DNA of 63,194 bases, the filler included, from Craspedostauros australis (Eukaryota), in assembly GCA_030167865.1 (NCBI GenBank). It is 12 parts of 12 records of this genome, joined end to end, with 100 filler letters (N's around TTAATTAATTAA, not from the genome) between each part and the next. Parts side by side here need not be neighbours in the genome. Positions count along the whole stretch, not along the records: positions 16,019 to 26,040 come from JALAGF010006600.1; 11 more parts are not named here. One strand, written 5' to 3'. Every line of letters starts with the position of its first letter. Position 1 is the stretch's first letter. The translations under genes and the position numbers were made by a program. The notes beneath the pieces were generated by a model, which saw only the letters and a program-made list of their open reading frames with translations, made no database searches and was not told where the DNA came from. Positions 5,799-54,060 of this stretch are shown one piece after another.

Positions 5799-6400
5799 TA
5801 TGGATGCCTTCCAGATGGACTGGAGACCTCATACTTCGTGACCAGACACTTTGGGGTGTGTTGTAAGTGCGCGCCAGGTTGGATTTGATTGTGATTGACA
5901 TTTTATATGCACATATGGGCAATCTACTGTACACTATGGCGCGTAGGCCATCGCACGACCACCCACAGCACCACTCGAAATCTAGATTCTCAGATTTGAC
6001 TACCTTCCAGACGGATCTAAGACCTCATGCTTCGTGACCAGACGCTTTGGGGTGTGTTGTAAGTGGGAGTCGGGTTGGATTTCATGGTGATTGACATTTT
6101 ATATGCACATATGGGCAATCTACTGCACAGTAATGTGCGTAGGCCATCGCACGACCACCCACAACACCACTCGAAATCTAGATTCTCAGATTTGACTACC
6201 TTCCAGATGGACTGGAGACCTCATACTTCGTGACCAGACGCTTTGGGGTGTGTTGTAAGTGGGAGTCGGGTTGAATTTGATTGTGATTGACATTTTATAT
6301 GCACATTTTGACAATCTACTGTACAGTTCGATGCGTAGGTCACAGTACTGTCACCCACAGCACTCGATATCTACAAACTCAGATTTGAATACCTTCCAGA
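5799..6400 (-). repeat. ~195-bp tandem repeat array, reverse orientation, about 3 units
   Basis: CCAGAC(A/G)CTTTGGGGTGTGTTGTAAGT at ~5843, 6038 and 6233; reverse complement of the 800-2120 unit. Confidence 0.92.
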
Positions 6401-6649
6401 AGGATCCTGGTCCTGGTAAGCTGGGAGTGTACCCAGTCGAACGCCCTTGATGCTCTCCAAGTGTTCAAATGCCATCATCTTGGGCCTTCTAATGCATACC
6501 TTGCCAATTCATGGCACACTGTGGACAGCATGAGACACTTTTGGAGCCATGATGATGCAACAGACTACTATACATCAGCATTGCATTGCAGAGTGTTATC
6601 TACAGGGAATGTTATGGCGAACTATGCCATTGTGCTATGATGGGTTAGT

Positions 6650-15439: not shown

Positions 15440-15532
15440 AAAAAATGCATTTGGTGTACAAAAATTGCATTTGAAGTGCATTAAATGCAAATGCAGTGCA
15501 TTAAATGCAAATGGAGTGCATTAAATGCACTT
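15440..15532. repeat. Short tandem/palindromic GTGCATTAAATGCA repeats
   Basis: Three tandem copies at ~15476-15530 plus degenerate copies upstream. Confidence 0.7.
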
Positions 15533-16863
15533 TCAGTTGTGCATCAGATTGATTCGTGACTCAAACAACTACAGTCACAACGGCGGTCATTGGACACCAA
15601 TAGACGATCTCGTTAAATATTGTACTTAACGACACGACATTTACTGGTCATTTTCAGCGAATGCAACGACACAGATTGTGGAGGTAAGACTAATTCGATT
15701 AAACAGCCTCGATTCATCTCTCTGGTCAAATGAGTCAAACGACGCACGTTTCAATGGGTTTGCCAGGTGTTGCTGTTGATGACGTGGTTGCGAGCGTGCA
15801 GCACTCGGGAAGGGAGTTTTGGGAATAGCAGGAACAGGGTTTACCGCAGCTTCCAACTTAACCCTTTACCGTTAATGACAGTCCCAACTCATGTCCCACA
15901 GCAAACTTGTCCGAGCGGNNNNNNNNNNNNNNNNNNNNNNNNNNNNNNNNNNNNNNNNNNNNTTAATTAATTAANNNNNNNNNNNNNNNNNNNNNNNNNN
16001 NNNNNNNNNNNNNNNNNNAGACTGGCTGAGATGGAATGTCATTGTGGGACGTCATTCACGAGTGATTGAGGTTGGCCTTTTAGAATTGCGCTGGGCCCAA
16101 TTACTTTCCATTTTTTGGAGCGAAATCAATTAATTGAAAACGCGTTTCCATTATCCATTTTATTTTACATTATCGGGACTGGCTTTCAATTAATGGAAAA
16201 GCGAAATCCATTTTCCATTGTGCTTTCCATTTTTTGGTATGGAGAGGCGTTGCGCGGGACTCGATAGCTTGAACAACAAACATCAATATGTTATGAGTAT
16301 GCCTGTGTACATGTCATTGACATTTAAATGAGATCAATTATTTAACCTATCATTCCCAACGTACTTTTTACAATGATGGCCTTCGAAGAGGAGAACGAAG
16401 CGAAAAATTGAAGGAGAAGAGCGATGAGGTCGAATTAGTCGAATGCCGTCGAGGTTGATGCATTTGCCGAGTGTCCCAGAAGGATCCAATCCACACGAAC
16501 CAGAAGGGTGCGATCAAGAGAAGGTTCCGCCCACACGAATCAGAGGGGCGCGATCATGAGGAGACAAACACAGGCAACCACACAGAGAGAGAGAGAGAGG
16601 GACGCGATCAAGAGGAGAGGATACATGCAAACAAGACCACAACACAACAACACAACCCCATACTCGAGCACCTCAACAACAGACACCGAATTGCCACTCA
16701 TATTCATCACACAGTGCATGATACTCATACTGATGCAAGCCATTGAAGACACACAATCGACATCTCTGCCATAGGTCGCTCAGACTACACACCTCCTCGA
16801 CAGGCAATCCAACGCCAATCGTCCAACGTCAATCGTCCAGCAACCATCGACCATCCCCTCAAC

Positions 16864-19800
16864 ATGCCGAATGTTACGAACGAACAACTGTTTGATGCTG
16901 CCTGGGAAGGTACCTTGTCGGTGTTGAAGAAATGGAAGAAGCAGAACAAGAAGAGCAAGAAAAAACGGGTTGATGCCAACAAGGTTATAGACTGGTTTGG
17001 TCGCACTGTCCTTCATGAGGCATGCATACACGGCCAGCTGGAGTGTATCAGGTACCTCATCAAATCATGTGGAGCTGACATCAACTGCGAAGACAACGCT
17101 GGCTCCACTCCCCTTCATTACGCATGCCACAACGGCCAGCTGAAGTGTGTGAAGTACCTCATCGAATCATGTGAGGCAAACATCAACTGCAAAGACAATG
17201 CTGGCTCCACTTCCCTTCATTACGCATGCATGCGTGGTCAGCTGGAGTGTGCGGAGTACCTCATCAAATCATGTGAGGCGAACATCAACTGCGAAGACAA
17301 CAATGGAAACACTCCCCTTCATGTGGCATGCATAAACGGCCAGCTCAAGTGTGTGGAGTACCTCATCGAATCATGTGAGGCGAACACCAACTGCAAAATC
17401 TACGATGGTTTCACTCCCCTTCATTGGGCATGCCGCAACGATGACCTGAAGTGTGTGAAACACCTCATCATATCATGTGGGGCGACCATCAACGGCAAAG
17501 ACACAATTGGAAACACTCCCTTTCATGTGGCATGCATACATGGCCACCTGGAGTGTGTGAAGTACCTCATCAAATCATGTGAGGCTAACATCAACTGCCA
17601 AGACAACAATGGAAACACTCCCCTTCATCGGGCATGCATGCGTGGTCAGCTGGAGTGTGCGGAGTACCTCATCGAATCATGTGAGGCGAACATCGACTGC
17701 CAAAACAACAATGGAAGCACTCCCCTTCATTACGCATGCCACAACGGCCACCTGGAGTGTATCAAGTACCTCATCGAATCATGTGAGGGCAACATCAACT
17801 GCAAAGACAAAGCTGGAAACACTCCCCTTCATCGGGCATGCATGCGTGGTCAGCTGGAGTGTGCGAAGTACCTCATCGAATCATGTGAGGCAAACATCAA
17901 CTGCAAAGACAATGCTGGCTCCACTTCCCTTCATCGGGCATGCCGCAACGGCCACCTGGAGTGTATCAAGTACCTCATCGAATCATGTGAGGCGAACATC
18001 AACTGCAAAGACAACAATGGAAACACTCCCCTTCATGTGGCATGCATAAACGGCCAGCTCAAGTGTGTGGAGTACCTCATCGAATCATGTGAGGCGAACA
18101 CCAACTGCAAAATCTACGATGGTTTCACTCCCCTTCATTGGGCATGCCGCAACGATGACCTGAAGTGTGTGAAACACCTCATCATATCATGTGGGGCGAC
18201 CATCAACGGCAAAGACACAATTGGAAACACTCCCTTTCATGTGGCATGCATACATGGCCACCTGGAGTGTGTGGAGTACCTCATCGAATCATGTGAGGCT
18301 AACATCAACTGCCAAGACAACAATGGAAACACTCCTCTTCATGTGGCATGCCGCAATGGCCACCTGGAGTGTGCGGAATACCTCATCGAATCATGTGAGG
18401 GCAACATTAACTGCCAAAACAACTTTGGTTCCACTCCCCTTCATCGGGCATGCCACAACGGCCACCTGGAGTGTATCAAGTACCTCATCGAATCATGTGA
18501 GGGCAACATCAACTGCAAAGACAACAATGGAAACACTCCCCTTCATCGGGCATGCTACAACGGCCACCTGGAGTGTGCGAAGTACCTCATCGAATCATGT
18601 GAGGCAAACATCAACTGCAAAGACAACAATGGAAACACTCCCCTTCATCGGGCATGCCGCAACGGCCACCTGGAGTGTGTGAAGTACCTCATCGAATCAT
18701 GTGAGGGGACCATCAACTGCAAAGACAACAATGGAAACGCTCCCCTTCATTACGCATGCCACAACGGCCACCTGGAGTGTGTGAAGTATGTCATCGAATC
18801 ATGTGAGGGCAACATCAACTGCAAAGACAATGATGGCAACACTCCCCTTCATCGGGCATGCTTGAATGGCCAGCTGGAGTGTGCGAAGTACCTCATCGAA
18901 TCATGTGAGGCGAACATCGACTGCAAAAGCATCTTTGGTTCCACTCCCCTTCATCACGCATGCCGCAACGGCAAGCTGGAGTGTGTGAAGTACCTCATCG
19001 AATCAGCCCATGCCGATCCCGACATTCAAAACAACGGCAACAAAACCCCCCTCGATTTGATCGATGCAGACCTTGACACTGGAATCAAGAGATTGATCAT
19101 GAAGCGTCGCATTCACCACAACCCACAACTGCAGCAACGCTTGCAACAAAACGAGCAAAAGAATAAACAACCACAAGAACATTTGAGACCGCATTTGAAG
19201 CAGAAGAAGAAAGGGAATCAACATTCACAAGAACAGTTGGGACAGCAGTTGAAGCAAGAGAATGAACAACTACAAGAGCAGTTGAGACAGCAGTTGAAGC
19301 GGAAGAAGCAAGAGAATGAACACAAACACAGTAGCCACAAGAGGACCACCATCAGCATCGGAAAAGACCGGCTCAGATCCTTTCATACCGAGAACAGGCC
19401 AGACACAATCTTCTTGTGTGGACAGGGCGACGACCAACAACCAATCAAGGCAAACGCTGAAGTCCTCATGATCTCCGTCCCATCCATTGAGACACTGATC
19501 AGCTCTGGAATCCAACATCAGCACACGAATGATGGTACCAAAGACGGCACGCCCCCCATGCAAGTAACTATCCCTCTTCCCAACCTTCAAGCAAAACACA
19601 TCCGATACATCCTCCAATGCATCTACACAGGCGAGATATCCTTTGATGACAGTGCTTGTGACAACGCTGCTGCTCACGTTGGCGCTCGTGCTGACGCTCA
19701 CCACGATGCAGATGCCCTTCACCAGTCAACTCCCATCCTCACTGGACAGGATGATCTGCAACAGCTGATCCTTGTGGCCGACCTGTTCGGTTTCTGGCGA

Positions 19801-20223
19801 CTCAAGCTTGTTCTTGAAGCAGAGTTGGCCCGCAAGCATCTCACAGAGGACACCATGATAGATGTGCTGATATTCGCCCATCAACACAACTGCGTGGTGT
19901 TGAAGGATGCAGCAATGAGAGTGGCAGCTGAAAATGAGAAAGATTTGTTCACTCATCCAGATTTCAGCAAGCTGATTCTACAACCCCAACTGATGAGAGA
20001 CATTCATGTCCTCCGCAGTGGGGGAGCAGAGAGTGATGGTACTGATGATGAGTACAGCCAGATGTCCATGGTGAAGCTGTACAAGGTTATAGATGAGGAT
20101 GAGGGTACAGTACAAGTGGATTCATACATGGATCGGGCAACATTGGTGGACTTCGTCCGCTCTATGAGTACCAAATCATCCAAAGTGAATGAGACGGACG
20201 GCGCTGCTGAAGAAGCGGAGTGA
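16864..20223 (+). CDS. Ankyrin-repeat (20 x 34 aa), Gln-rich coiled coil, BTB/POZ-BACK protein, 1119 aa; probable Cullin-3 substrate adaptor
   Basis: Intact ORF with G(N/S)TPLHxACxxGxLxCxxYLIxSC repeats. The C-terminus has a BTB/BACK pattern (ILQCIYTG, LILVADLFG..LK, VLIFAHQHNCVVLKDAA). Confidence 0.95.
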   Translation: MPNVTNEQLFDAAWEGTLSVLKKWKKQNKKSKKKRVDANKVIDWFGRTVLHEACIHGQLECIRYLIKSCGADINCEDNAGSTPLHYACHNGQLKCVKYLIESCEANINCKDNAGSTSLHYACMRGQLECAEYLIKSCEANINCEDNNGNTPLHVACINGQLKCVEYLIESCEANTNCKIYDGFTPLHWACRNDDLKCVKHLIISCGATINGKDTIGNTPFHVACIHGHLECVKYLIKSCEANINCQDNNGNTPLHRACMRGQLECAEYLIESCEANIDCQNNNGSTPLHYACHNGHLECIKYLIESCEGNINCKDKAGNTPLHRACMRGQLECAKYLIESCEANINCKDNAGSTSLHRACRNGHLECIKYLIESCEANINCKDNNGNTPLHVACINGQLKCVEYLIESCEANTNCKIYDGFTPLHWACRNDDLKCVKHLIISCGATINGKDTIGNTPFHVACIHGHLECVEYLIESCEANINCQDNNGNTPLHVACRNGHLECAEYLIESCEGNINCQNNFGSTPLHRACHNGHLECIKYLIESCEGNINCKDNNGNTPLHRACYNGHLECAKYLIESCEANINCKDNNGNTPLHRACRNGHLECVKYLIESCEGTINCKDNNGNAPLHYACHNGHLECVKYVIESCEGNINCKDNDGNTPLHRACLNGQLECAKYLIESCEANIDCKSIFGSTPLHHACRNGKLECVKYLIESAHADPDIQNNGNKTPLDLIDADLDTGIKRLIMKRRIHHNPQLQQRLQQNEQKNKQPQEHLRPHLKQKKKGNQHSQEQLGQQLKQENEQLQEQLRQQLKRKKQENEHKHSSHKRTTISIGKDRLRSFHTENRPDTIFLCGQGDDQQPIKANAEVLMISVPSIETLISSGIQHQHTNDGTKDGTPPMQVTIPLPNLQAKHIRYILQCIYTGEISFDDSACDNAAAHVGARADAHHDADALHQSTPILTGQDDLQQLILVADLFGFWRLKLVLEAELARKHLTEDTMIDVLIFAHQHNCVVLKDAAMRVAAENEKDLFTHPDFSKLILQPQLMRDIHVLRSGGAESDGTDDEYSQMSMVKLYKVIDEDEGTVQVDSYMDRATLVDFVRSMSTKSSKVNETDGAAEEAE
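16999..19038 (+). repeat. Coding tandem array of 20 x 102-bp ankyrin units
   Basis: Exact 102-bp period without indels; units 4-6 (17305-17610) are nearly identical to units 11-13 (18019-18324). Confidence 0.97.
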
Positions 20224-20526
20224 AGTACCATGCCATATTATGCCATAACAGAAGTCTTCGAGAAGTAAACGCATGACAGAATTGAGATGATGAAAAGAGG
20301 ACTCGAGTCAGTTGTCGGAGGGAGAGTATTCACAATCAGACTGCGAATGGTAATTACATATTCTATTGAGTAGCGTTATGTATTCTACACCACAAAAAGA
20401 AACGGCCACAGCGGACAGTTGTGACCTGCACAACCAGACAAGATCGTTTCGCTCCCATTATGACGGTTGGTGATCACACGCTTGCTGAGCGACTCATTCA
20501 ACTTCAATCCGTTGCACCATCCACCT

Positions 20527-22327
20527 TCACATGGGTGGATGTCCACGTGCCTCTTCCAGTTCTTGCTTCGCCTTTGCCAGCTGCGTCTTGAGATCTAGTT
20601 GCCGAACGCGAATATCTTGACAGATCCGCTCGAGCTTCGCCACCCAGAGCTTGTGCTCAAGAATTTTAATCTTCTTTGTCTTCCGCTTGGGCTGAGACGA
20701 TGACCTGTCGTGTTGTGGATTGGTGTTGGTGCTGTCGGTGCTGTTGATGCTGTTGGAACCACGAGAATGAGGACGCGGACGATGATCTGGAAGAGAAGGA
20801 GCGCGGCGAGTTCAACAGCGCTGATATCATTGGATGATGCGACTTCGTCCGCAACAGCAATATCGTCAGCGATATCATCATTGGTAGTACTGTGGCTGAG
20901 GGCGGATCCTGTCTCATTGCTGGTTGACCGGGTTCTCCTCTTCCGCTTCTTTGATCGGACGCAGATCCTCGTATGGCGATACCCGAGATGTTTCTGTTCC
21001 TTTTCATCGTCTCCGCGGTCACGATCGATAGCGCCATCGTTCCCGTCGCTACCGTTGTTGCCGTCACTTTCGTATAAGGACTCGTTGCCGTCATCATTTG
21101 GTGGAATGGGAGTGCTCCCGTCATCTCGGTCTTTGTCATCGTCGCTCCCGTCGCCGCTCTCATCTTCGGTTTCGTCTTCTCTCTCCTCGTCACTGTCGTC
21201 GGAGCATTGGTCGTCGTGACAGCGGGGCGCACTTGTGGGGAACTCCATGCCCGTCTTTGCGGAGGTGGGTAAAGGCCTCAGTGATGGTCGCGGGCTGGAT
21301 TCGGGAGAGATAGTGGCTTGTGACGATCTCTCCGCAAGCTGGGGAGCGTCCTTCAGCACTTTCCAACAAGCCGCGAGTATCTCGACGCTGAGAGAGCGGT
21401 TTTCGCCCTCCGTCTTGTGTGACTGAGTTGGGACAGACTAGCTCCGGGACTGACTCGGGACTTGACTGTCCATTCCGCGTACACGGTACTCGGTACCCAA
21501 GACCGATACTATGATGAAAGGCTACCACACACACGATGTGTAGTTGAACTGCAATCCTTGCGTTGCTCGCCCTCCAGCTCATGCACCCCTGCCACCTATC
21601 CACCTCGTCACCCTGCCGAACATGCATCTGTCTTGAAGCATATCCATGTGAATGGATCAGTTACTGCTCTATGGGTGATGATACTGGAAGACTGTATGTG
21701 TGCAGGATCACCACGGCATGTTGCTGCGCAACAAAGAACGGCTGAAGTACGACAGCATGAACCCCACCTTTTTACTCGATCGTCCTATCAATAGTAAGCT
21801 TAACACATAAAACAAGCAATCAGAAACAATCTTCACAGCTTACTTCCAAGTTTACTACAGTTACACCATCGTCTGATACAGCTTTGCTCTCAACATCAAA
21901 CGGTGCCAAAGCCGGTTGAAGGGCAGATCATCCTCCTGACAACGTGCAAAAGACACGGTATACTAACTGACTGGTACCAATTTGCAATCCATCGCACTTC
22001 GGCTTCTTCCGACATGTGCGGAGTCGATGGGTGATGTTCTCGAAGTTGGAGGACAGGGCGCCGGATTCTGTTGAAGAAGGCCCCGAGACTGTATTGATTT
22101 GAGTGTAGGGATATGTGGACATTAGATGCTGCTTCATCATTGTTGGTGTCGCCTCCGCTTGCGAGCTTTCCATCCAATTCTTGGTTGTATTGGTTGATGC
22201 TCTGGTTGAACATCTTCAAGATGAGAGGCCAACGTCGTTCCCCACGCTTGAGTGGTTTCTTATTTACTTCCATAAAGGCGACGCAAAGAAACCGCGCTTT
22301 CGTTGGAGTCCAGCCAAGAGGCGGCAT
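20527..22327 (-). pseudogene. Myb/trihelix(NAM-associated-like) paralogue 1, interrupted by a 543-bp insertion and with a 3' frameshift
   Basis: MPPLGWTPTKARFLCVAF..WIANWYQS | HKTEG..ACWKVLKDAPQ; the terminal coiled coil (LWVAKLER..AKQELEEARG) is in another frame. Confidence 0.8.
21426..21968 (+). mobile_element. 543-bp insertion, probable solo LTR (family D), AGTT..AACT termini, 5-bp TSD GACTG
   Basis: GACTG at 21421-21425 and 21969-21973; precise removal makes paralogue 1 collinear with paralogues 2 and 3 (23 aa from W to CW in all three). Confidence 0.8.
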
Positions 22328-22929
22328 CGTGAAGGAGTGGATTTGTACTGTTTGAGTGTCTCCTTTGATGCTATGCGTTGTTCTATGATCGACGATGGCG
22401 CTGGCTCTTGTTTCGTGGGTGCAGTTGCGAGCGATGAAGACGAAGCAGAAGAGAGGAAGTTTGAACGCCAGTCTTCTGAAAAGGTCAAGTTGGAAGATCA
22501 ACGCAGCGATTGGTGTGCGATGCCTCTCTGTTGCTTCTTCTGCTTCTGTTGCTGTGTCCGTTATGATCGACGATGGAAGTCAAGTATCGATCCTGATGTG
22601 ACTTTCTGCCGATGTGCGTGGTACGTCTCATCGATGGAAATTTGCATTTGTGGAGAGGGAGGTATCTGCGCCGACTTCCGCAAACTCGACAAGCATTCAC
22701 GAAACATCATGCGCTAGCTAGTGCACGATGATATCCAGAGGTCTCAACAGGAAAGAGATGGTCGCATGTCCATGCAAACTGTGATCTGTTCCATTATTCC
22801 CTTCGGAATGTCCACCCACCTGAAATTGGCACCACCAATCGGATCCTGCATACACATGCATTCTCCAATTTCCCCATTGCTCCATCTCTCGATCCATCCA
22901 CGCATGTGAAAGTTCGACACCTAATGACT

Positions 22930-24201
22930 TCAAGCCGAGCGATTGCGATGTGCCTCCTCCATTTCTTTCTTCGCCTCAGCAACCTGAAGCTTCAGATTGA
23001 GTTCCTGCAGGCGCAGATCGTGATAGTTGCGCTTAAGCTTGGTAAGCCGGAGTTCCTCGCGAATCGTGTCCATCTCCTCGCTGCCTTGGAGCGCCTTGGG
23101 TGGTGTGCTTCTTGCGGAGTCTCGGTCTTCTGTTCGCGTGGCTTGCGCTGTTTCTGAACGCACCTGCGGCGTGCCGTCTGTGTTGTCACGACGGTGTCCG
23201 CGATGCTGGCGACGACGACGATACCTGACTGTTTTGGCAACGCCATTGCCGTCTCCGGCTGCGTCGCCGTTTTCCACATGGGCGCTATCATCCGTGTTGC
23301 CGTCCTCCGCATCGTTATTGAGGACGACAAGCGTGCTCCTGTCAGCATCTACGGATACGCCACGATGCTTGCGTTTGCGCGATGGGGTATACCCAGTCGC
23401 AGTCGCAGGCTGTTGGTCATTGGATCCTCGCATCTGGATGGCGCTGTCGTTGTCGTTGTCGCTGCTGCTCTCCGTGTTCTCGTAGCTGGTGACAGTAGCA
23501 GGCGCGTACTCGTTGTCGTCGTCGTCGTCATCCGGATTGTATTGATCGTCCCCGCTCGTTCTGACGGAATTGTCTCCGTCTTCGCTTGCATGATCGCCGT
23601 CAGTCTCACCATGAGGGGATGAGCCTTGATGGTCGCAACGGTTTCGAGCGCGGACTGATGCCGCGACTGATTTGCGTGCGAGGAGGCGAAAAGGTCGAAG
23701 TGTGAGTTGTGGATAGGACTGAGCAAAGGCAGGTGAGGAAGCATCTGCAATTTGCGGCGCGTCCTTCAGGAGTCTCCAGCACTCCACGAAGGCGTGGATG
23801 TTGAGGCGAGAGTGTCTGGATCTTTTGTGCCACGATTCGCGCCAATCTGCGATCCATTGGAATTCAGCTTCCTGCGAAGTGTGAGGTGTTGGCGGAAGAT
23901 GCTTTCGAAGTTGCAGAGTGGAATGCCGGACGGTGCCGAAGATGCGTCTGAGACTATCTGCAGAAACCGTGCATGCGAGGTCATCGCAATCATCGCCGAA
24001 GTCGCTGTTGTTTCTGTCGGCGTTTCCTCTGTTCGCTCTCTCTATTGCCATCCGTTCGTTGTACTGCGCGATGCGGCGCTTGAAATTCTCAAAAATGAGA
24101 GACCAAGTTCCGCTTTTGCATATGCCTGGTCCCTTCTTGATTTCCAGGTAGGCGAGGCAAAGCATCCTCGCTTTCGCCGGAGTCCAGGAAGGTTGCGTCA
24201 T
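22930..24201 (-). CDS. Myb/trihelix(NAM-associated-like) paralogue 2 with acidic region, NLS-like motif and C-terminal coiled coil
   Basis: MTQPSWTPAKARMLCLAY..GTWSLI..ECWRLLKDAPQ..PSRKRK..LRLTKLKRNYHDLRLQEL; start chosen by paralogue alignment. Confidence 0.85.
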   Translation of the reverse strand: MTQPSWTPAKARMLCLAYLEIKKGPGICKSGTWSLIFENFKRRIAQYNERMAIERANRGNADRNNSDFGDDCDDLACTVSADSLRRIFGTVRHSTLQLRKHLPPTPHTSQEAEFQWIADWRESWHKRSRHSRLNIHAFVECWRLLKDAPQIADASSPAFAQSYPQLTLRPFRLLARKSVAASVRARNRCDHQGSSPHGETDGDHASEDGDNSVRTSGDDQYNPDDDDDDNEYAPATVTSYENTESSSDNDNDSAIQMRGSNDQQPATATGYTPSRKRKHRGVSVDADRSTLVVLNNDAEDGNTDDSAHVENGDAAGDGNGVAKTVRYRRRRQHRGHRRDNTDGTPQVRSETAQATRTEDRDSARSTPPKALQGSEEMDTIREELRLTKLKRNYHDLRLQELNLKLQVAEAKKEMEEAHRNRSA

Positions 24202-24778
24202 TTTAGAGAAGAAGTGAGAATGTGCTGTGTGAGTATTGGCGGTGACGATATTCCATGGACTGCCCTTGGACTCTTCGCTCAAGCTTTGGTGCAGTGTCTG
24301 CTGTTGTGTTGGATTTGGTGACGCTGGATGGTGTTGTTGTGTGCCTGGCCTCCTGGTTGGAGTTGATGGGCGACTTTGTGGGGAGGGGATGCGTGGATCT
24401 TCTGGTGATGCCAAAAGATACGGTTGCACTCGATTGAGTCAATCGCAGTGATTTGGATGGAGGTGGCTTTCTCGATGAGAACCTCTCTCTGGTCAGAGAG
24501 GGCTGGTGTGGCGGAACCACAAACGAGACCGACAATACCATTCATCTGTGCAACAGATGCTCTCTCATTCCATCAACGAACCCAAACGTTGCATGCATCT
24601 CATCGCTTGGCTCGGCACAGCGAGTGATAACTTCATTCATCTAATATTTGCAAGAGAGGTCAGGGGCTTTATCTGAACGCTGTGCGAGTTGAGGATAGCG
24701 TGTGGCGCTGGTCTGTATACGCCGTGACTTCATTCCTTCATTTGTTCATGCATATGCAACGATCGACATCTATATCCT

Positions 24779-26032
24779 TCAAATCGTTCGATCACCACGA
24801 GCTTCTTCCACTTCTTTCTTCGCCCTCTCGACCTGGAGCTTGAGGATGAGTTCTTGAATGCGCAGTTCGTGGTAGTTGCGCTCAAGTTTAGCTACCCGGA
24901 GCTGTTCGCGGAGCAACTTGGTATGCTTGCGGTCATGCAACGCTTGAGGCAACGTGATCGTTGCAGTTTCCATTGGCGTTGTCCTTTTTGTTGGCTTTAG
25001 GCGCCTGAGTGGATAGGCGTTGCCATTCATGTCGTTGTGGAGGTGTTGATACCGACGACGTGTGCGCTTTGGTCTTGGATCGTCCCTGATTTCGTCGGCG
25101 CTCTCCACGTTGATATCATCGTCTGTGTTGCTGTCCATGTCATCGCTGTCGACGACGGCGCGCGTGTTGGAATGACATGTGCCGGGATCTGCAGATACGC
25201 GACGACGCTTGCGCTTCCGCGATGGGGCGCGAACAGTCGCACGCCGTCGGTCTATGAATTGCCGAGTGGGATTTCCGCTGCTGTATACGGTGGGCCTCGC
25301 GTTGCCGCCGTCGTCGTCGCGACTCGTGATTTTGTTGGGTCTGTTGGGGGCTATAGACGCATCCTCCTCCTCCTCTTCTTCATCTTCGTCATCGTCACCG
25401 GTATTACCTGCGTCGTCATCTTCGTTGCTATCATCGCTATCAAGTTCATGATCTGCGTGTTGACTGTCGCGACGGCCGATGGCACAGGCAGATGTTTTGG
25501 TACATTTGCGCGCGATGAGGCGAACTACCCGATGCGTTGGCTGTGGATTGCATCTGGAGGCAGCTGAAGAATCATCTGCAATTTGCGGAGCGTCTTTCAA
25601 GATCCTCCAGCACTCCAACAGTAAGTTGCTGTGCAAACCCACGCTCGCGCCTCTGGCTGCGTATGATTGGTGCCAACGGTCGACCCACTGAGCTTCTTGC
25701 TTTCTGGATTTGTGAGGGTTCGGCGGACGCACTTTTCGGAGATCGAGGATGGTGCACCGGATCTTGCTGAATATCCTTCGATACCGCGCGGTGTCGTGAA
25801 CGCATGAGATCTTCTTGATATCGCCTGCTGATGCCGCAGAGTTTTTGCGTGCGCGTGCACCCTTTGCATGCTTCCTTGCGACTCTCCTGTTGTGTGCCTG
25901 GATGGCTTTCTTCATGTTCCGTGAAATGAGGGGCCAGGTTCCTTTTTCGCACCTCCCTGGTCCTTTGACCACCTTCAAGAATTCAAGGCACAGCATCCGC
26001 GCTTCCTCGGCAGTCCAGAAAGTACGCCGCAT
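24779..26032 (-). CDS. Myb/trihelix(NAM-associated-like) paralogue 3, 417 aa
   Basis: WTAEEARMLCLEF..GTWPLI..ECWRILKDAPQ..PSRKRK..LRVAKLERNYHELRIQEL. Confidence 0.85.
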   Translation of the reverse strand: MRRTFWTAEEARMLCLEFLKVVKGPGRCEKGTWPLISRNMKKAIQAHNRRVARKHAKGARARKNSAASAGDIKKISCVHDTARYRRIFSKIRCTILDLRKVRPPNPHKSRKQEAQWVDRWHQSYAARGASVGLHSNLLLECWRILKDAPQIADDSSAASRCNPQPTHRVVRLIARKCTKTSACAIGRRDSQHADHELDSDDSNEDDDAGNTGDDDEDEEEEEEDASIAPNRPNKITSRDDDGGNARPTVYSSGNPTRQFIDRRRATVRAPSRKRKRRRVSADPGTCHSNTRAVVDSDDMDSNTDDDINVESADEIRDDPRPKRTRRRYQHLHNDMNGNAYPLRRLKPTKRTTPMETATITLPQALHDRKHTKLLREQLRVAKLERNYHELRIQELILKLQVERAKKEVEEARGDRTI

Positions 26033-26854
26033 TGTGTACGNNNNNNNNNNNNNNNNNNNNNNNNNNNNNNNNNNNNNNNNNNNNTTAATTAATTAANNNN
26101 NNNNNNNNNNNNNNNNNNNNNNNNNNNNNNNNNNNNNNNNCCGTGAGAATCAGTATCGATCTGAACCGGGTGGGACGAAGACATCAAATAAAAAGTCTGT
26201 CCAACCACTCGTGAACTTGACGATGTCACTCAACATGGAACATGCGACGTTGCCATGCACTTAACGACAAGAAGAATCACGTCATCACAGTTTCGACTCG
26301 AACTAACGCCCGTAACGTCGAAATGAGCACGTACTACTCCGCTCGCACGAGTTTGCAGCACCTTGCCGGCTCGCAGTTCGGTTGGTTGCCGTTCAGTGTT
26401 TTGGGAGCCGCGGCAATTTTGGAGAGACTCCTTCGCAATGACGTTCCCGGCAAGCCTGACAGGTTGTCAAGTTGCTGGACATGATGACGTGGGTTGAAAT
26501 GTCTGCGACCTCTGAACTCTCTTCGAGCTCCTCTGTGTATACCATGCATTGAGTACCTTAGTATGATACTACAAAATCGATGCGATACCATTCGTATAGA
26601 GCATGCGCCTAACCCGGCACACTCAGTATATCTTCGACAGTGAATCGGGTTCTCCACTAGTCTCCCGTGCGTGCCCACTGTGACGAAGTAGACAAAAATA
26701 CATAGGCACATTCATGTACACAGCGCACTGCTCATTGCGCACTCCTACCTTCGTCAGACTCAACTGAAAGGCAATGCGTCACTTTGCACCATACTAGCAT
26801 CATCCATGGCATCCATGTTGGTACCTGCTTCCTGCTTGTGTCATCCTCGTGGTC

Positions 26855-32099: not shown

Positions 32100-32234
32100 G
32101 GAGTCGTCCTCGTCTGTGAACTCGTCGAAGCCTCNNNNNNNNNNNNNNNNNNNNNNNNNNNNNNNNNNNNNNNNNNNNTTAATTAATTAANNNNNNNNNN
32201 NNNNNNNNNNNNNNNNNNNNNNNNNNNNNNNNNN

Positions 32235-33807
32235 TGCGTTCGCGACCGCGCAGTCGCGACATACCGGCATCTCGCCGATAATCTTCCATCCGTATTGAGC
32301 TGCCGTTCGCTTCATGGCTTCGAGTGGCGCGTGGCCGAGCATTCGATGCAAGTTCACCGCGCTGATCTCCTTGGATGGGTTCTTGACGATGGCTGTGCAA
32401 GCCTTGTCGTCGTTCGTTGGCATGATGGGATGCATCTGCACTCCCGTGATGAATCCGTTGGCTGTGGGGAAGACTCGGTCGAACACGATCTTCGTTCCGG
32501 ATCCGTTGATGATGTCCATCAGAATGCCGTTGCTACCAAGCTGGTAACCGTTGTACAGAGCCTTGTTCGTGGAGAAAAGGTTCACCGCCATTTTCGGTGT
32601 GTACTTCACATCATCAAGCCGGATGATGTGGCCGGTGTTGTCTCGTTGCTTGACCTTCAAGCGAATGGATCCCATTTTGGGAGAGTCCAGTTTCGTGCTG
32701 TCTCCCACTTGGACGAATGATTTGATGTGCCGCACGTTGAAGAGAGCGGCGTCTGAGTTGACGATGTGACACGAGGCTCCACTGTCGGCGAGCCAGGTGT
32801 TCTTGTCGACCTTGTCCTTGTACTTGGTGCTTAGCTCGTGGAGCTGCTCCACGGCTGCCGCAGCTATCTCGTCGTTGAAGCTGCCGTCATCGTCATCTTC
32901 GTGAACTCCATCTTCGTTGNNNNNNNNNNNNNNNNNNNNNNNNNNNNNNNNNNNNNNNNNNNNNNNNNNNNNNNNNNNNNNTGATCCTGTGGCTGGATCG
33001 TATGGGTGGACGCGTGATCGCTCTCGCAAGAGTACACGCATGCATCCTCCAAGGATGTAGTGCAGGTCCGTCTCTGGGATCGTCTCCGTGTTGTCCGCTT
33101 CCAATATGCGGTTGATGACGACCGAATTGGCGAGAATCTCTTCGATTGATCTGAAGTTCTCGGATAGGATGGNTCCCATCATGTTCACCCATATCGGTCT
33201 GAGCACTCCTTGTACGTGTCCTGGGAAGAGTTTCGTTCCTGCTTCCATTACGGCGTCGAAGATGAGTTGCTTCTGGATTACCAATGCTGTCTCTGTTGCA
33301 TATGGGACGGTATCATGACGATGGAGGTAGTTGGAGTTGTTGGGATCCTCAATCGGTGGGAAGTCAATGTTCCCTGGGTAGACGACGCGCTCGTTCGGAT
33401 TGAAGCTGTCGTCCGGATGATTCTCGGTTTCGTCGCTGTCATCTTCGTCGAAGATGCCCGATCTGTTGTTCCCCGCTGCTGGAGGAGGCGGCGCCGCGCC
33501 GCGGTTCACCTCGTCGTCTTCATCTGCGCCGTCCTCGTCGGCGTCGTCGTCGTCATCGCTCATGGCCTCTTCGATGTCGCTATCGTTGGCCTNNNNNNNN
33601 NNNNNNNNNNNNNNNNNNNNNNNNNNNNNNNNNNNNTGCGCGTTGAAGCAGCATTCGTAGCTCACTTCGCGTCTTGGATCCACCTCGTGGATGATTGGCT
33701 CCTCGCTGAGCCACTCCGGGACAATCTCATCGTCCTGTACTTCGTCGTCACTTCCGACGCACTCGAAGTTATCGAAGAAGGAGTCTTCGATGTAGTCGTC
33801 GGACACC
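32235..33807 (-). mobile_element. Ty1/copia fragment: long NC-PR spacer, protease, GAG-pre-integrase
   Basis: WLADSGASCH, VKYTP..NLFS, LHRMLGH..CRDC. Confidence 0.92.
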
Positions 33808-33907
33808 NNNNNNNNNNNNNNNNNNNNNNNNNNNNNNNNNNNNNNNNNNNNTTAATTAATTAANNNNNNNNNNNNNNNNNNNNNNNNNNNNNNNNNNNNN
33901 NNNNNNN

Positions 33908-34542
33908 GATCGTACTATTCAGAACTGTGAGCTCATTCTCTTCAGCTCCTTTGCCTTTCGTTTCTCATGTAGCATCTCCTGCAGCAGCATCTCGTTAGAC
34001 TGTTGCATTCATGCATCTCATCATCATGGATCATCGCNTGCATGCATGAGGCCTCATCCGCAGGCATCCTTGTCATGCACATCGTCGTGCATATCCGAAG
34101 GCATTCCTGCCTTGCGACTCGTCGTGCATATCCTTATTCTACATTCCCTGCGGTACGATTCCACAGTCTTGCGTTTCGCTCTTGATCTCCTGACACCAAA
34201 CTTTACGATTGGTGTCATGATTGATGTCATGTTTGATGCCCTTTCTGAGTTGTTCTAGTCTGTGGGTGACACGTGCCATGATCTCCAGATGGGGTGATCA
34301 TCAATCGGTCGGTCATCATCCTCCTTCCCATGATTTGGATGTCGTGGTCTTTTCTTGATACACAGAGGACAGGCTTGTTTGCTTGGTAAGACTGGGGTCA
34401 TTCCCGTGTGATTCGTGTCGTGGGTGGAATGGANAATATTCAATGGTGTGACNAATAATATCCAAAGGTGTGACAAATAATGTTGGGAGTTGCGGCAATC
34501 ATGGGTATCTTTCCGACAGAGTCGTACCCTCGATTCCTGACA
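33908..34542. mobile_element. LTR-like fragment (family E) ending GATTCCTGACA; its end recurs at 34746-34827
   Basis: The same ~80-bp terminus abuts two unrelated retroelement coding targets. Confidence 0.7.
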
Positions 34543-34695
34543 AACAGATTGAGATGATCTGTGTGTATTGTTATTTGCTGACCAAGGAGAATGTTATTGA
34601 ATGCTTTCAGTGTTTCGACTATGCTGAGAAGCTCCTTCTCTCCTGTGGTATACCGCGTTTGAGCGGCATTAAGTTTACGAGTATAGAATGCCAGT
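34543..34695 (-). mobile_element. Ty3/gypsy RNase H fragment
   Basis: LAFYTRKLNAAQTRYTTGEKELLSIVETLKAF..LLG..IHTDHLNL. Confidence 0.9.
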
Positions 34696-34827
34696 NNNNN
34701 NNNNNNNNNNNNNNNNNNNNNNNNNNNNNNNNNNNNNNNNNNNNNTCCAAAGGTGTGACAAATAATGTTGGGAGTTGCGGCAATCATGGGTATCTTTCCG
34801 ACAGAGTCGTACCCTCGATTCCTGACA

Positions 34828-37230
34828 GTGGTGGGAACCAAGGGCGGGCCCACTGAGAGTGGAGACCCACGCAAGGCGTGGAAGGCCCTTGAACGCATCT
34901 ACGAGCAACGCACTGCGCCTNTNAAGGCAAAGTTGTTGGCTCAACTCAANGGGATGCGNTTGAAGAAAGGNGAGCACCCAGACACGTTCCTAACNGANAT
35001 GGAAGTGCTGCGTAATCGCCTCGGTAGTACTGGNATCAAGATNGATATGCAACAGTACCACATGCTCGTACTCAACGCCCTCGGAAGGGAATACGAGACG
35101 GACGTCAAGCTCTTGGAGCTCAAGTTCGACGGTATGGAGGACACCATGACCCTCGAAGACATCCGCGAAGCTGTCAGTGCCACCTACGACGGCCGACACC
35201 TCAAGCTCGGCGGCAACAGACGTGAGAGCAACAGGGAAGAGACTGCATTCGCTGCAGTAGGAGGCTTCAAAGGTCACTGCCGCAACTGTGGTGCCTACGG
35301 CCACAAGAAAGCAGACTGCCGCTCCGCCCCCAAGAAAGACAANGGCAAGAACAANAAGAGTGGCCAAGGAGTCAACAACAGCAAGCCCAAGTTCAATGGG
35401 GAGTGTAAGTACTGCGGTAAGAAGGGACACAAGATCCTACAGTGCTTCAAGCTGAAGGCAGCCATGAAAGAGGCAGACTCGGCTAATGTGGCAACTGATG
35501 GGATGGAAGGAAATAACGACGTAGCTCTTGTGATGACCGACGAATTAATTTGTGTGCCCACCTCGGGAAACACGAACGAATTGGAAAATGTGACCAACTT
35601 GTCTGTGAACACAGGCGAGGCGNNNNNNNNNNNNNNNNNNNNNNNNNNNNNNNNNNNNNNNNNNNNNNNNNNCCGCAACTGTGGCGCCTACGGCCACAAG
35701 AAGGCAGACTGCCGCTCCGCCCCCAAGAAAGGCAACGGCAAGAACAAGAAGAGTGGGCAAGGAGACAACAACAGTAAGCCTAAGTTCAACGGGGAGTGTA
35801 AGTACTGCGGTAAGAAGGGACACAAGATCCTACAGTGCTTCAAGCTGAAGGCAGCCATGAAGGAGGCAGACTCGGCCAACGTGGCAACTGATGGGATGGA
35901 AGGAAACAACGACGTGGCTCTCATGATGACAGATGAGCTAATTTGTGTCCCCACCTCGGGAAACACGAACGAATTGGAAAATGTGACCAACTTGTCTGTG
36001 AACACAGGCGAGGCGAAAACACGCGACAACGACAGCAACTACCAAGTTGACTCCAAGGTAATGGAGGACGTCGCCTTTGCAGCCATCGTCGAACATACTG
36101 ACACATCTCCCATTCTTTCTTTGAGACCACACAACGTCAACAAAAAGATGAGCAACTCCAACCAAGGACAAGAATCCTACTATGACGCAAGCCTCACCAA
36201 CGAAGGGGCCACCGACACCGAGGACGTGGATGACGACATGGGGGATGCCAACCGAGAAGAAGAGGCACGTCGCCCTATCTTCAACTTCGCCCCAGAGCTC
36301 TCTCGTGTGGACCGCATGATCGGGAACTCGACNGGGCTTACCACCAACACGGCCTGGTGCCCTCTGTGCCTCAAGCGAGGACCACTTTACGCCTGGTGCG
36401 TGGAGTGCCCCCAAGTCCCTTTCTTCATCCAGCTCCACAACGAGCCGCGTGGCAATGTGCCAACGAACGACGAAGAGCGCGCGGAACGACGTACCAGACT
36501 CGAAAGAGCTGGCTCCCTCCGCAATGCGGTTCGAGCATCGCTGAGCAACGTGCTCAAAGCCGATGATGTGCGTTGTGAGCTCGCCTTACTGTGCTATGAC
36601 GCTGTGGCCACTCACNNNNNNNNNNNNNNNNNNNNNNNNNNNNNNNNNNNNNNNNNNNNNNNNNNGGCCACTCACAGCTGGGACCGCGTCCCTCTCATCG
36701 AGCCACGCACGGTGTATTTCAAACTGCACGAGATCGGGATGCTTACCACTTTGAGTGTGTGTCGCAACCCGTGCAACATCAACAACAGTTTGGAGTCTCG
36801 TCAGTTCGATCCCTTTCCCAGCGATTTGATTTCGCGCATAACCCACCATGCCGCAAACTCCATCAGCTGGACCCATCACCAAAGTGACTGCGGAGTCAGA
36901 CTCCCAAAGCCAGAGCACTGGGTGCTGCCAATCTACTCTGAACGCGAAGAGCAACACGAAGTGGCAATGGTGGTCGGCAACACCGACAACGTCAGCGCAA
37001 GGCGCTCCTCCGTCGCACCGGACAACTACGAGAGCAACACCTGGTTGGGAGATTCTGGCGCATCGTGCCATCTCACCAACAACGACGAAGGGATGACTAA
37101 CGTTCGCGTCTCCGATCAGAATGTGAAGATCGGGAGCGGGCGCTTTCTCAAGGTAACCAAGGTGGGCGACAAGCGCATGACCGTCATGCAAAGAAACGGG
37201 AGGAGATACAACGTGGTGCTCAAGTCGGTG
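34828..37230 (+). mobile_element. Ty1/copia gag (capsid, CCHC knuckles), long spacer and protease
   Basis: GDPRKAWKALERIY, CRNCGAYGHKKADC, CKYCGKKGHKILQC, WLGDSGASCH. Confidence 0.93.
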
Positions 37231-37330
37231 NNNNNNNNNNNNNNNNNNNNNNNNNNNNNNNNNNNNNNNNNNNNTTAATTAATTAANNNNNNNNNNNNNN
37301 NNNNNNNNNNNNNNNNNNNNNNNNNNNNNN

Positions 37331-39003
37331 GCATTTGCAGCATCTGCGGCCGCGTGGGATGGCGTCTCGTTTGATCTTGCTGTACACCTTGCGTGTGTCC
37401 ATGGAGTTGAACTCTTTCTTGATGGCTGCTCGATATCCCTTTCGATGGATAGGGTCTGGATGGTTGAAGGCTCCATCGAATGTTGTAGGTTCGATGTGCT
37501 TCTCTGGTTCTTTGTTCTCGTCCTGCATCGACAGTCCGATGTCGATCGCTGGTGATTCGGTAATGATTGCATTCATTCCGTACAGTCCTGTTGTGCTATA
37601 GTGAGTGATCTCAATCTCTCCTTCATCTGCAATTTCTTCGTCATCTGTAGTTTCGTTGTTGGAGTCGTCGATCATCTCGTCGCTGAGTTCATCACTGTCT
37701 TCGTTGGATGATGGATCGCTTTCATATCCTTCTTCCTTTNGACCTCGTTCGTTGAAATCTGCGAGTTCACGCAGAGCTCTAGAAATATTCTTTCCTGTAG
37801 TTGACTTGGGATTAGTTTCTCCCTTCCTGCCTCGTGATTCGTGACGTCGGATCCTCTCCTTTCTAGCTATGTCATGCTTGTTTGGTTTGCTCGGTGGAGA
37901 TCTGGATGGTGTGTCATGTGTAGACCTCGCTGGTGTGTTTGGAGGGGTGACGCCTGTATTATCATCGGCTTCGTCGCCGGATGGTAGGATCTCGTCATCC
38001 TCATGATTGGATTCGCTCCGATCTTCCTCGTCGTTGTGGACTAGTTGAGTCACTACTCCGTCGTCCTCATTATCCTCATCGTCGCTGTCCGATAGGATAT
38101 AATACCTGTTGCTGTCAGCGAAAGATACTCTCTTCGCTTCTGATGCTTGACGCGTTGCCGTCCTTGGCATTGCTCCCTTCCGTCCGATGGTTGTGAAGCC
38201 GTCTGCGTCCGTTGTTCCTGTTTCGTTGGATATGTTCGGTGCTGGTGCCCAGCCACGGAACTGTCCGTATGATTGGTTGAGCCACTTGATATCGCGTGAG
38301 CAGATCAGTGACTTGGTCGATGGTCTGTACATGTTGTAGACCCCTGATGCATGTTGGTGTGCATACCCGATGAACACCATCTCTTCTCCTCTATTCTTGA
38401 GCTTGGCGGTAATCCCGCCGTAGGTAGTCTTCACAACACCCACCTCTCCGNNNNNNNNNNNNNNNNNNNNNNNNNNNNNNNNNNNNNNNNNNNNNNNNNN
38501 TGTTTCATTGGATACGTTCGGTGCTGGTGCCCAGCCACGGAACTGTCCGTATGATTGATTGAGCCACTTGATGTCGCGTGAGCAAACGAGTGACTTGGTC
38601 GATGGTCTGTACATGTTGTAGACCCCTGATGCGTGTTGGTGTGCGTATCCGATGAACACCATCTCTTCTCCTCTATTCTTGAGTTTAGCGGTGATCCCGC
38701 CGTAGGTAGTCTTCACAACACCCACTTCTCCGAAAGTGCGGAGTGCATCCGCNTANGGTGGATCATTGCCGAAGAATTGTCGNTGTGGTGACTCCTTTTG
38801 ATTCTTCGCTACGGTGATGTTGGCGATGGCGGTGGCAGTGCTAGCAGCTGCTGCCCACAGGCCATGCCTATACTCTTCGTCGAGCTGTGCTCCGTTGAGC
38901 ATGGAGCGGATCTTGGTGCAGAGGTACGCGAACTTGCGTTCTACTCTACCGTTCTGTTGCGGTGTGTTCGATGCCGTGAATTCGAATTTCACGTTGAGTC
39001 CTG
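37331..39003 (-). mobile_element. Ty1/copia integrase C-terminus to RT start
   Basis: TPQQNGRVER, LRTFG..KLKNRG..FIGY, SRDIKW, EPTTF..AIKKEFNSM. Confidence 0.95.
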
Positions 39004-39103: not shown

Positions 39104-39512
39104 TCGACGGAGTGACCCCTAAATATGCAATGACGGCCTATAACCACTTGGAACGCACCCATTGGGGACCATACCATGGCCCACCATTGTTGGTTTGCTC
39201 GCGCATTGATCATTTGTATGCACATCTGTCCAGAACACGATATTCAGTGGCGCTGAATATTCACTGTCATATGAATCACCAAATTCGACCGGAGGATCCT
39301 ATAAATACGTAATTACGACCTATAACCACTTGGAACGCACCCATTGGAGGCCGTACCATGGCCCACCATCGTTGGTTTGCTCGCGCATTGACNNNNNNNN
39401 NNNNNNNNNNNCCAGAACACGATATTCAGTGGTGCTGAATATTCACTGTCATATGAATCACCAAATATGACCGGAGAGACCCCTAAATATGCAATTACGA
39501 CCACCCCCACTG
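39104..39512. mobile_element. End of a Tc1/mariner-like element with 182-bp subterminal tandem repeats
   Basis: CTATAACCACTTGGAACGCACCC at 39138 and 39320; the array stops at CCCCCACTG|TA (CAGTG terminus plus TA). Confidence 0.55.
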
Positions 39513-53488: not shown

Positions 53489-54060
53489 GGTGGTGGTTGT
53501 TTGTTGTCTCCTCCTGTGTATACGGCTATGCTCGGCTATGCTGTGCTCTGCTCTGCACGCGTGCGTACTCTTTCACCTCTCTTGGAAGTGTCTGTATGAG
53601 TGGTAATATCCCTAATGAGATTTTGGGCCCCCGATGTGACAAATTTGGCACTTCACATTGATGTGACAAATTTGGATCGATGTGCCACATTTGTCACATC
53701 CTGTGTGTTCGCATCGGCCAGCTGAGGTGGTACTGATAAAGTTTTTTGACTTCCACACAGCGTTATCGCGGAGAGGCGCTTTTGTGTCCTCAAAACTCTT
53801 GATTGTTGTTTCTCCAGGATTGGCGTTTGTGCTTCTGTTGGTTTCCGACGACGGTGAGACTATTCGATGCTTCACGGAACTTGTTTCAGTGCTATTTCCA
53901 AGCGAAGTCTGCGATTTTCATCCAATCATTGTCTTTCAACAGTGTCTATGCACGAAGCGTNNNNNNNNNNNNNNNNNNNNNNNNNNNNNNNNNNNNNNNN
54001 NNNNTTAATTAATTAANNNNNNNNNNNNNNNNNNNNNNNNNNNNNNNNNNNNNNNNNNNN

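Follow-up and report, generated by a model that had tools for sequence, protein, structure and literature searches.

How does a tandem array of closely similar repeats come to carry the same few variable codons in different combinations, and does the DNA lying between those codons direct their exchange? The question is raised by a gene of the diatom Craspedostauros australis, located in a window of 63,194 nt (the whole stretch of DNA that was analysed, filler included, from assembly GCA_030167865.1). The gene is an intact single-exon open reading frame (ORF) of 1119 aa at 16864..20223 on the plus strand, taken from the ORF list and Pfam, and its product comprises, in this order, an N-terminal leader, 20 ankyrin (ANK) repeats, a Q/K/E-rich linker and an SPOP-like BTB/BACK C-terminal domain. 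The repeats form an array of 20 in-frame units of 102 nt (34 aa) at 16990..19029 (+), delimited by Tandem Repeats Finder (TRF) and by unit alignment, in which unit n starts at 16990+102(n-1). A preliminary description of the array had proposed that variable codons are swapped as modules across the 6-bp palindrome GCATGC, by recombination or conversion that resolves within a few bases and rather than by point mutation. The explanation that we regard as probable is a plainer one, namely a diatom ANK-BTB recognition array that evolves by ordinary exchange between repeats together with point mutation, and in which GCATGC has no directing part.

The observation at the centre of the question concerns codon 10 of the unit and codons 13-14, which lie on either side of GCATGC. 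All four combinations of TAC or CGG at codon 10 with CACAAC or ATGCGT at codons 13-14 are present, in the same units in which they were first reported and with unit numbers that agree with the 102-nt series. Unit 2 carries TAC (17119-17121) with CACAAC (17128-17133), a combination found additionally in units 8 and 18, while unit 3 is the sole unit with TAC (17221-17223) and ATGCGT (17230-17235). CGG is followed by ATGCGT in units 7 and 9 (CGG at 17629-17631 and 17833-17835, respectively) and by CACAAC in unit 15 only (CGG at 18445-18447, CACAAC at 18454-18459). The alleles differ as completely as had been claimed, at 3/3 bases between TAC and CGG and at 6/6 bases between CACAAC and ATGCGT. The upstream block AATGCTGGCTCCACTTCC is likewise present twice, at 17197-17214 in unit 3, where CTTCAT and then TAC follow, and at 17911-17928 in unit 10, where it precedes CGG. 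When units 11-13 are left out as copies of units 4-6, the remaining 17 non-redundant units give a TAC/CGG by CACAAC/ATGCGT table of [[3,1],[1,2]] (Fisher P=0.49), and codon 10 and codons 13-14 look freely assorted. Such free assortment needs either exchange or the repeated occurrence of identical multi-base mutations.

Between these two, the choice of synonymous codons is informative. The variable-codon alleles shared between units are copies and not convergent mutations, because the synonymous codon used for a given residue is fixed at each position: arginine is encoded by CGG in 7/7 cases at codon 10, by CGC in 6/6 at codon 13 and by CGT in 3/3 at codon 14, and isoleucine at codon 13 by ATA in 5/5. 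The background usage of CGG, CGC, CGT and ATA, obtained from the non-repeat parts of the gene and from a cyclase ORF elsewhere in the window, is 0.20, 0.33, 0.11 and 0.12, respectively. Since the alleles are copied, exchange between repeats is their best explanation. The competing account dispenses with exchange and has point mutation produce the shared codons again and again, with strong diversifying selection acting on binding-surface codons, and we consider it quite improbable. Mixed background usage is at odds with codons that are fixed position by position, TAC and CGG differ at every base, and a mutational path from CAC to arginine would end at CGC, not at CGG. Moreover, units 8 and 15 (the latter at 18418..18519, +, from the unit alignment and block comparison) are identical over positions 31-102 (72 nt) and differ at 8 bases, at positions 7-8, 12-14 and 28-30. 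The three-base difference at 12-14 turns GGAAGC into GGTTCC, and because both encode Gly-Ser, a synonymous swap of this kind between otherwise identical stretches is beyond the reach of selection at the protein level.

Traces of exchange are also seen in the structure of single units, two of which parse as mosaics in the unit alignment. Unit 3 (17194..17295, +) resembles unit 2 over positions 1-30, with 2 mismatches, and unit 7 over positions 31-88, with 1 mismatch, and its junction falls necessarily within 17224-17229, that is, in GCATGC itself. Unit 10 (17908..18009, +) equals unit 3 exactly over positions 1-27 and is unit-15-like over positions 28-102, the left endpoint of the exchange lying between unit positions 19 and 28. 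Both units belong to a larger duplication, found by sequence comparison, in which a block of 410 nt at 17150..17559 (+) has a copy at 17864-18273, 714 nt or 7 units downstream. The two copies show 18 differences, and 16 of these are confined to a divergent patch of 34 nt at 17221..17254 (+; positions 28-61 of unit 3), which block comparison pairs with 17935-17968 in unit 10. The rest of the block includes an exact stretch of 266 nt (17294-17559 = 18008-18273), by which units 4-6 equal units 11-13; this internal duplicate could be a very recent block copy of 3 units or an assembly duplication. The patch in unit 10 resembles unit 15, with one difference inside it, and the simplest reading is that unit 10 acquired, by copying, a short tract of ~34-75 nt once the block had been duplicated. 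Sixteen changes in 34 nt beside 266 unchanged bases are not a pattern that point mutation leaves, and the patch and the mosaics together bear the mark of repeats that exchange by unequal crossover and by conversion of short tracts. Exchange between units therefore best accounts for the four combinations, as the preliminary description held, on the combined strength of the fixed synonymous codons, the GGAAGC/GGTTCC swap and the 34-nt patch.

The codons that vary are few and their location in the repeat points to a possible function. Variation is found at codons 2, 3, 5, 10, 13, 14, 16 and 34, with per-codon entropy highest at 13, 10, 3, 2, 16 and 5, and amino-acid identity between units is 0.856 in the framework and 0.428 at the variable positions. 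Mean amino-acid identity reaches 0.69 over 17 units and 0.76 over the 14 core units. There are 17 distinct variable-residue signatures in the 20 units, one for each of the 17 non-redundant units. A model of the array made with AlphaFold2 (AF2) in single-sequence mode, with a predicted local distance difference test score (pLDDT) of 68, has two helices per unit, helix 1 at residues 7-13 and helix 2 at residues 17-26, and in this model the variable codons occupy the loop and the inner helix (helix 1), which is the predicted ankyrin binding face. In a HMMER alignment, variable positions 2, 3, 5, 13 and 14 align with the inter-repeat differences of the designed ankyrin repeat protein (DARPin) D12, and position 10, three or four residues ahead of positions 13 and 14 on one helix, would lie on the same helical face. 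Judging from these codon positions, it is plausible that exchange yields new binding specificities.

Whether exchange can be seen by formal tests was asked of the gene's own units, for which the preliminary description had proposed four-gamete tests, and the outcome was divided. With a robust version, in which alleles at least 2 nt apart are required on both sides, violations were obtained for 5/36 module pairs, each involving codon 10 or the codon 1-5 module, and the minimum number of exchanges was two, one in the interval 15-28 and one in the interval 30-37, which flank codon 10. The pairwise homoplasy index (PHI)-type and codon-level permutation tests were non-significant. Association between variable codons is strongest at short range (mean z of 1.82 at 1-3 codons over 28 pairs, 0.68 at 4-8 codons over 35 pairs and ~0.5 farther apart), and 22/171 codon pairs have P<0.05, where 8.6 are expected.

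Several observations weigh against the explanation favoured here, and they are best considered together. The analysis covers a single array with 17 independent units. The PHI-type test, applied to three sets of units, returned P=0.26, 0.43 and 0.16, and incompatibility did not vary with distance. Incompatible site pairs number 311/465, a saturated level, some of them within codon 10, and the minimum number of recombination events (Rm) is 13-20. Permutations reached the observed value of a triplet-mosaic statistic in 2/200 cases at the nucleotide level and in 55/200 when codons were treated as single characters, and this statistic, dominated by the divergent unit 20, is a poor test. Taken as a whole, the formal tests for recombination are weak and do not single it out. 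Codon 10 is unassociated with codon 13 (P=0.26) and with codon 14 (P=0.61), although pairs as close as 10-13 are associated (13-15, P=0.006; 2-4, P=0.007; 3-5, P=0.016), and this could reflect either a local hotspot or a fast-mutating codon 10. The pN/pS ratio (Nei-Gojobori), for codons that are saturated and recombining, is 1.15 at the variable codons vs 0.52 in the framework, and because it is only 1.15 positive selection is not demonstrated. The Cullin-3 adaptor role considered below is predicted from resemblance of fold and family. Finally, the draft sequence of the window contains gaps (2304 N), and short-read assemblies of arrays of this type are described, in the available part of one study, as omitting, creating and chimerising repeats (PMC12222747).

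Some of these data reveal what point mutation contributes. Sites that are mutually incompatible within codon 10 indicate that recurrent mutation takes part, and they count, together with the high and distance-independent number of incompatible pairs, in favour of the account without exchange. The same can be said of alleles that are one-step neighbours, namely CGG-TGG, GTG-GAG and TAC-CAC at codon 10 and CGC-CAC-TAC at codon 13, and of changes of CGG>CTG/TGG type (C>T and G>T) that units 15 and 16 show at codon 10 in an independent public run (X1). Point mutation clearly contributes to the variable codons as well, and the part of the preliminary description by which modules are swapped rather than mutated is contradicted by these three lines of evidence.

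Run X1, which is of uncertain kind and with which 0.18 of the sampled words were shared, also bears on the quality of the assembly. Its contigs fitting the gene stretch 16400-20600 (4.2 kb) at >=90% number 1080, of which 217 fit at >=99%, 346 at 95-99% and 517 at 90-95%, and they contain many variant letters, including in the non-repeat C-terminal part. These variants suggest a family of close copies, alleles or strains, with the BTB part included. The C-terminal region at 19220-20206 has the highest summed X1 contig depth (up to ~18,600) and 27 listed variant positions. Three contig joints were recorded, with skips of 720, 821 and 1375 nt, and the first two keep the unit register by coordinate arithmetic. 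At one joint codons 13-14 become GCTACC, with a left side like unit 12 and a right side like unit 19, and at the other codons 15-16 are replaced to give GGC AAA. Joints that keep the register indicate that more variable-codon alleles and combinations exist elsewhere. X1 contigs are too short to bridge units or to rebuild arrays, and the order of units is neither verified nor refuted by them.

The array might instead be an artefact, built by mis-assembly from alleles or paralogues of a large family, with the consequence that unit number, unit order and some of the mosaics would be unreal. We judge this unlikely, notwithstanding the many N runs of the draft, the length of the 266-nt exact internal repeat, which exceeds that of typical short reads, the 1080 short X1 contigs that imply many similar copies, and the chimeric repeats that short-read assemblers make in such arrays, as the accessible text of PMC12222747 relates. 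The array lies inside a gap-free stretch (16019-26040) and the frame of 1119 aa is intact, while 217 of the 1080 contigs fit at >=99% with no alternative letters listed at codons 10-14 of unit 3, where exact coverage is unproven. Additionally, the four combinations are no product of assembler path switching, because they span 15 nt, and the contrast between units 3 and 10 spans 27 nt, against assembler word sizes of 21-77 quoted in the available part of that study (PMC12222747). The number of units, their order and the exact duplicate of 3 units come from a draft assembly and are to be treated as provisional and unverified.

The remaining question is whether GCATGC directs exchange or merely encodes what the repeat requires. 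In its strongest form the idea is one of sequence-directed shuffling, in which GCATGC, possibly with CTTCAT, is a preferred exchange point, codons are swapped as modules, perhaps mitotically, and the array works as a programmed generator of diversity. In keeping with it, the two exchanges that are robustly required lie one on each side of codon 10, this codon shows no linkage to codons 13-14, only 7-12 nt away, though equally close pairs are linked, every one of the 17 non-redundant units has its own variable-residue signature, and run X1 adds variable-codon alleles in the same frame. Nevertheless, GCATGC comprises codons 11-12, Ala-Cys, within helix 1, and it is unchanged in all units because it encodes a conserved pair of that helix; the Ala-Cys pair was recognised by eye in most repeats of the diverged relatives' proteins. 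It is not alone in being fixed, as not one nucleotide changes between units in codons 9, 11, 12, 19, 24 and 26. The window contains 46 GCATGC sites, of which 23 lie beyond the array, against ~29 expected for the whole window, and DNA folding of 4/20 units gave z-scores of 0.0 to 0.7, with no hairpin or cruciform signal.

The position of the endpoints is no better guide to a hotspot. If at least 13 exchanges have uniform endpoints, the probability that the 7/102 bonds between codons 10 and 13 are struck is ~0.60 for one or more hits and ~0.23 for two or more, so that two exchanges near codon 10 fit uniform breakpoints and a hotspot is unneeded. GCATGC also lies between the two most variable sites, where an exchange is most readily detected, and single-base neighbours among the alleles mean that mutation, too, can unlink codon 10. 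The preliminary statement that exchange resolves within a few bases merely repeats that an endpoint falls between markers 6 nt apart, and the proposed role of GCATGC as palindrome or hotspot finds no support in view of coding constraint, chance frequency beyond the array and ordinary DNA folding. Within the 63-kb window neither the repeat nor the C-terminal domain was found again outside the gene, for instance as a donor cassette. Sequence-directed shuffling is, in our judgement, highly improbable, and palindrome-centred shuffling would leave current understanding unchanged because the data do not require it.

Two other functions of the motif or the array were considered. A restriction-site role of GCATGC was rejected, there being no excess of the site beyond the array. 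Cassette copying by a diversity-generating retroelement or of the variable lymphocyte receptor (VLR) type was rejected for want of donor copies in the window; such reverse-transcriptase pieces as the window contains resemble those of retrotransposons, and the differences at variable codons span more than one base type.

For ordinary exchange with point mutation the sequence of events would be as follows. The array would have grown recently to 20 units by tandem duplication, and unequal crossover and short conversion tracts between misaligned units would copy and homogenise the framework, each such exchange making one chimeric unit. A few binding-surface codons would meanwhile stay distinct through point mutation and, probably, selection that favours diversity. 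The four combinations of TAC/CGG with CACAAC/ATGCGT would then be by-products of one or two exchanges that ended in the 6-nt gap between codons 10 and 13, and GCATGC would not direct recombination. The anatomy of the gene, its domain folds, the copied origin of the alleles and the conversion-like patch are what the data show directly; when and how the exchanges took place, any selection in favour of diversity and the Cullin-3 adaptor function are inferred.

The units of the array are regular in spacing and unequal in divergence. TRF reports for it a period of 102, 19.6 copies, 81% matches and 0 indels, and a pattern scan with [CT]T[CT]CAT-NNN-GCATGC-NNNNNN finds 20 in-frame copies with exact 102-nt spacing (17011...18949), while units 1, 5/12 and 20 are the most divergent. 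In the whole protein Pfam recognises Ank (3.3e-200, 20 stretches) and Ank_2 (1.7e-256), and ankyrin membership is borne out; the PDB matches of the array model are DARPins and ankyrin-1, with E down to 1.8e-116. Between the array and the BTB domain, imperfect repeats of 45/54 nt at 19160..19322 (+; TRF and translation) encode the Q/K/E-rich linker, which is possibly a coiled coil. Upstream of the gene are two short tandem repeats, one at 16808-16839 (14-nt unit x 2.3) that ends 25 nt 5' of the ATG and another at 15475-15529 (20-nt unit x 2.8) ~1.3 kb upstream of it.

The C-terminal domain, at 19306..20220 (+), is a BTB and BACK-like helical domain according to the AF2 model, PDB match and Pfam. 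The Pfam BTB match is marginal, at 20.7 bits in the whole protein and 24.0 in the C-terminal piece for a cut-off of 20.5, with relatives reaching 34.4, and BACK_BPM_SPOP matches are weak and under the cut-off. The AF2 model of the last 305 residues, from a 17-sequence alignment that includes 16 relatives, has a pLDDT of 82.2 and a predicted template-modelling (TM) score (pTM) of 0.77, and among PDB structures it is matched best by the BTB domain of human SPOP (E 7e-8, target-normalised TM 0.81-0.82), so that the domain has a BTB/POZ fold of SPOP type. No NACHT or NB-ARC match is present among the 9 Pfam families found in the whole protein at E up to 0.01.

Relatives of the protein are more easily found for its C-terminus than for its array. 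When the C-terminal 380 aa served as query for an exhaustive search without restriction, 110 relatives were obtained, and E was 1e-30 or better for 10; when the search with the same 380 aa was limited to proteins of similar total length, there were none. The whole-protein search led to nothing more specific than long ankyrin proteins of a generic kind, with <=46% identity among the 120 matches listed. Among 12 relatives scanned, 8 have ANK+BTB, 2 have MATH+BTB (P0133 and P0134) and 2 have BTB-type matches alone. The ANK+BTB relatives carry, as counted by eye in their sequences, ~4-8 diverged repeats each of the TPLHxACxxGH...YL.ES type, and by this comparison the gene appears to be a family member with an unusually long, homogeneous array. 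A metagenome scan with the framework pattern CTTCAT-N3-GCATGC-N6-GG... gave 0 matches, and a search for related loci with units 14-19 gave 36 pattern matches, 0 of which were confirmed by tblastn. By analogy with its relatives, the protein is probably a Cullin-3 substrate adaptor, in which the ankyrin array replaces the MATH domain of the SPOP-type proteins.

A bolder proposal would place the gene in a large diatom family of hypervariable ANK-BTB receptors, Cullin-3 adaptor-like, whose codon modules are exchanged within and between arrays and whose recognition repertoire, comparable to that of fungal NOD-like receptors with internally conserved repeats, is coupled to ubiquitination, with exchange maybe frequent in clonal growth and possibly favoured near codon 10. 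We hold this to be speculative and, in so complete a form, rather unlikely. If it were true, the diatom ANK-BTB repertoire could serve the recognition of pathogens, symbionts or mates.

The rest of the window contains features of other kinds. An ORF of 685 aa at 48676-50733 (-) encodes a guanylate/adenylate cyclase catalytic domain fused to a cyclic-nucleotide phosphodiesterase domain, and its best named relatives are from pennate diatoms, at ~50-54% identity. Pieces of Copia-type long terminal repeat (LTR) retrotransposons are found at 32187-38992 and 54013-55380, on both strands and broken by N runs, with Pfam matches to gag, the Pol beta-barrel, the retroviral SH3-like domain and, weakly, RVT_1. 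Tandem repeats of long period are located at 5807-6404 (196 nt x 3.1) and 39108-39502 (182 nt x 2.2), and since their consensus units share a ...TATGCACAT... stretch they may be related elements.

Some known systems resemble this gene in one of its parts. The likeness to DARPins concerns the binding surface, as DARPin D12 varies between repeats at positions 2, 3, 5, 13 and 14, like the diatom array; in contrast, DARPins are synthetic and have a 33-aa unit, while the unit here has 34 aa and is variable at positions 10 and 16 too. Those five DARPin positions, together with position 33, are the randomised library positions. The repeats of transcription activator-like (TAL) effectors are also near-identical units of 34 aa and 102 nt with a hypervariable residue pair, and gain new specificities by recombination of repeats. 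TAL effectors have another fold, bind DNA and are bacterial, so that the likeness is an analogy only.

At its C-terminus the protein resembles the adaptors of SPOP/BPM type with MATH and BTB domains, in that its fold is that of the SPOP BTB domain and relatives P0133 and P0134 carry MATH; unlike in those adaptors, recognition would fall to 20 ankyrin units in tandem and not to MATH. The MATH domain has undergone adaptive evolution in nematodes and grasses. According to the available part of one report, MATH-BTB proteins are substrate adaptors of CUL3 and the family is expanded in grasses (PMC4091423). In the diatom Seminavis robusta, BTB/POZ families are expanded, fast-diversifying and biased in expression towards reproduction, as given in the accessible portion of PMC7335047. 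A limited literature search brought up no account of diatom ankyrin arrays that are hypervariable.

The closest parallel is offered by the repeat arrays with high internal conservation (HIC) of fungal NOD-like receptors (NLRs), including HNWD, ANK and TPR arrays, which likewise consist of near-identical tandem units in concerted evolution by unequal crossover and conversion. For the WD40 repeats of Podospora HNWD, the available text describes 143 spontaneous mutants of vegetative origin, among which units had been deleted, duplicated or made chimeric and a patch of 88 bp had been converted, and 12 new residue combinations, 9 of which came from shuffled parental codon pairs and 3 from point mutation (PMC2873952). 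The part available of PMC4986451 extends the same regime to ANK and TPR arrays of fungi, P. anserina Pa_3_8560 among them, and gives as the criterion for HIC >85% amino-acid identity between repeats over >=100 aa. What the diatom array shares with them, as read from one draft sequence, are chimeric units and variable codons that are paired in reshuffled ways, and in its model the variable positions cluster, as in fungi, on a predicted ligand-binding face. The diatom array differs from the fungal HIC arrays in its lower internal identity (0.76 for the 14 core units, with 16/190 pairs at >=85%), and from the fungal NLRs in having no NACHT/NB-ARC, in being joined to BTB/BACK and in its host, a diatom. 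If confirmed, it would extend to diatoms and to an output of BTB/Cullin-3 type the strategy of a near-identical scaffold with hypervariable codons, so far documented mainly for fungal NLR receptors, and would provide diatom biologists with candidate genes for rapidly evolving recognition. The regime is known already from the fungal NLR arrays and involves no new mechanism; what is new is the diatom lineage and the partnership with a BTB domain.

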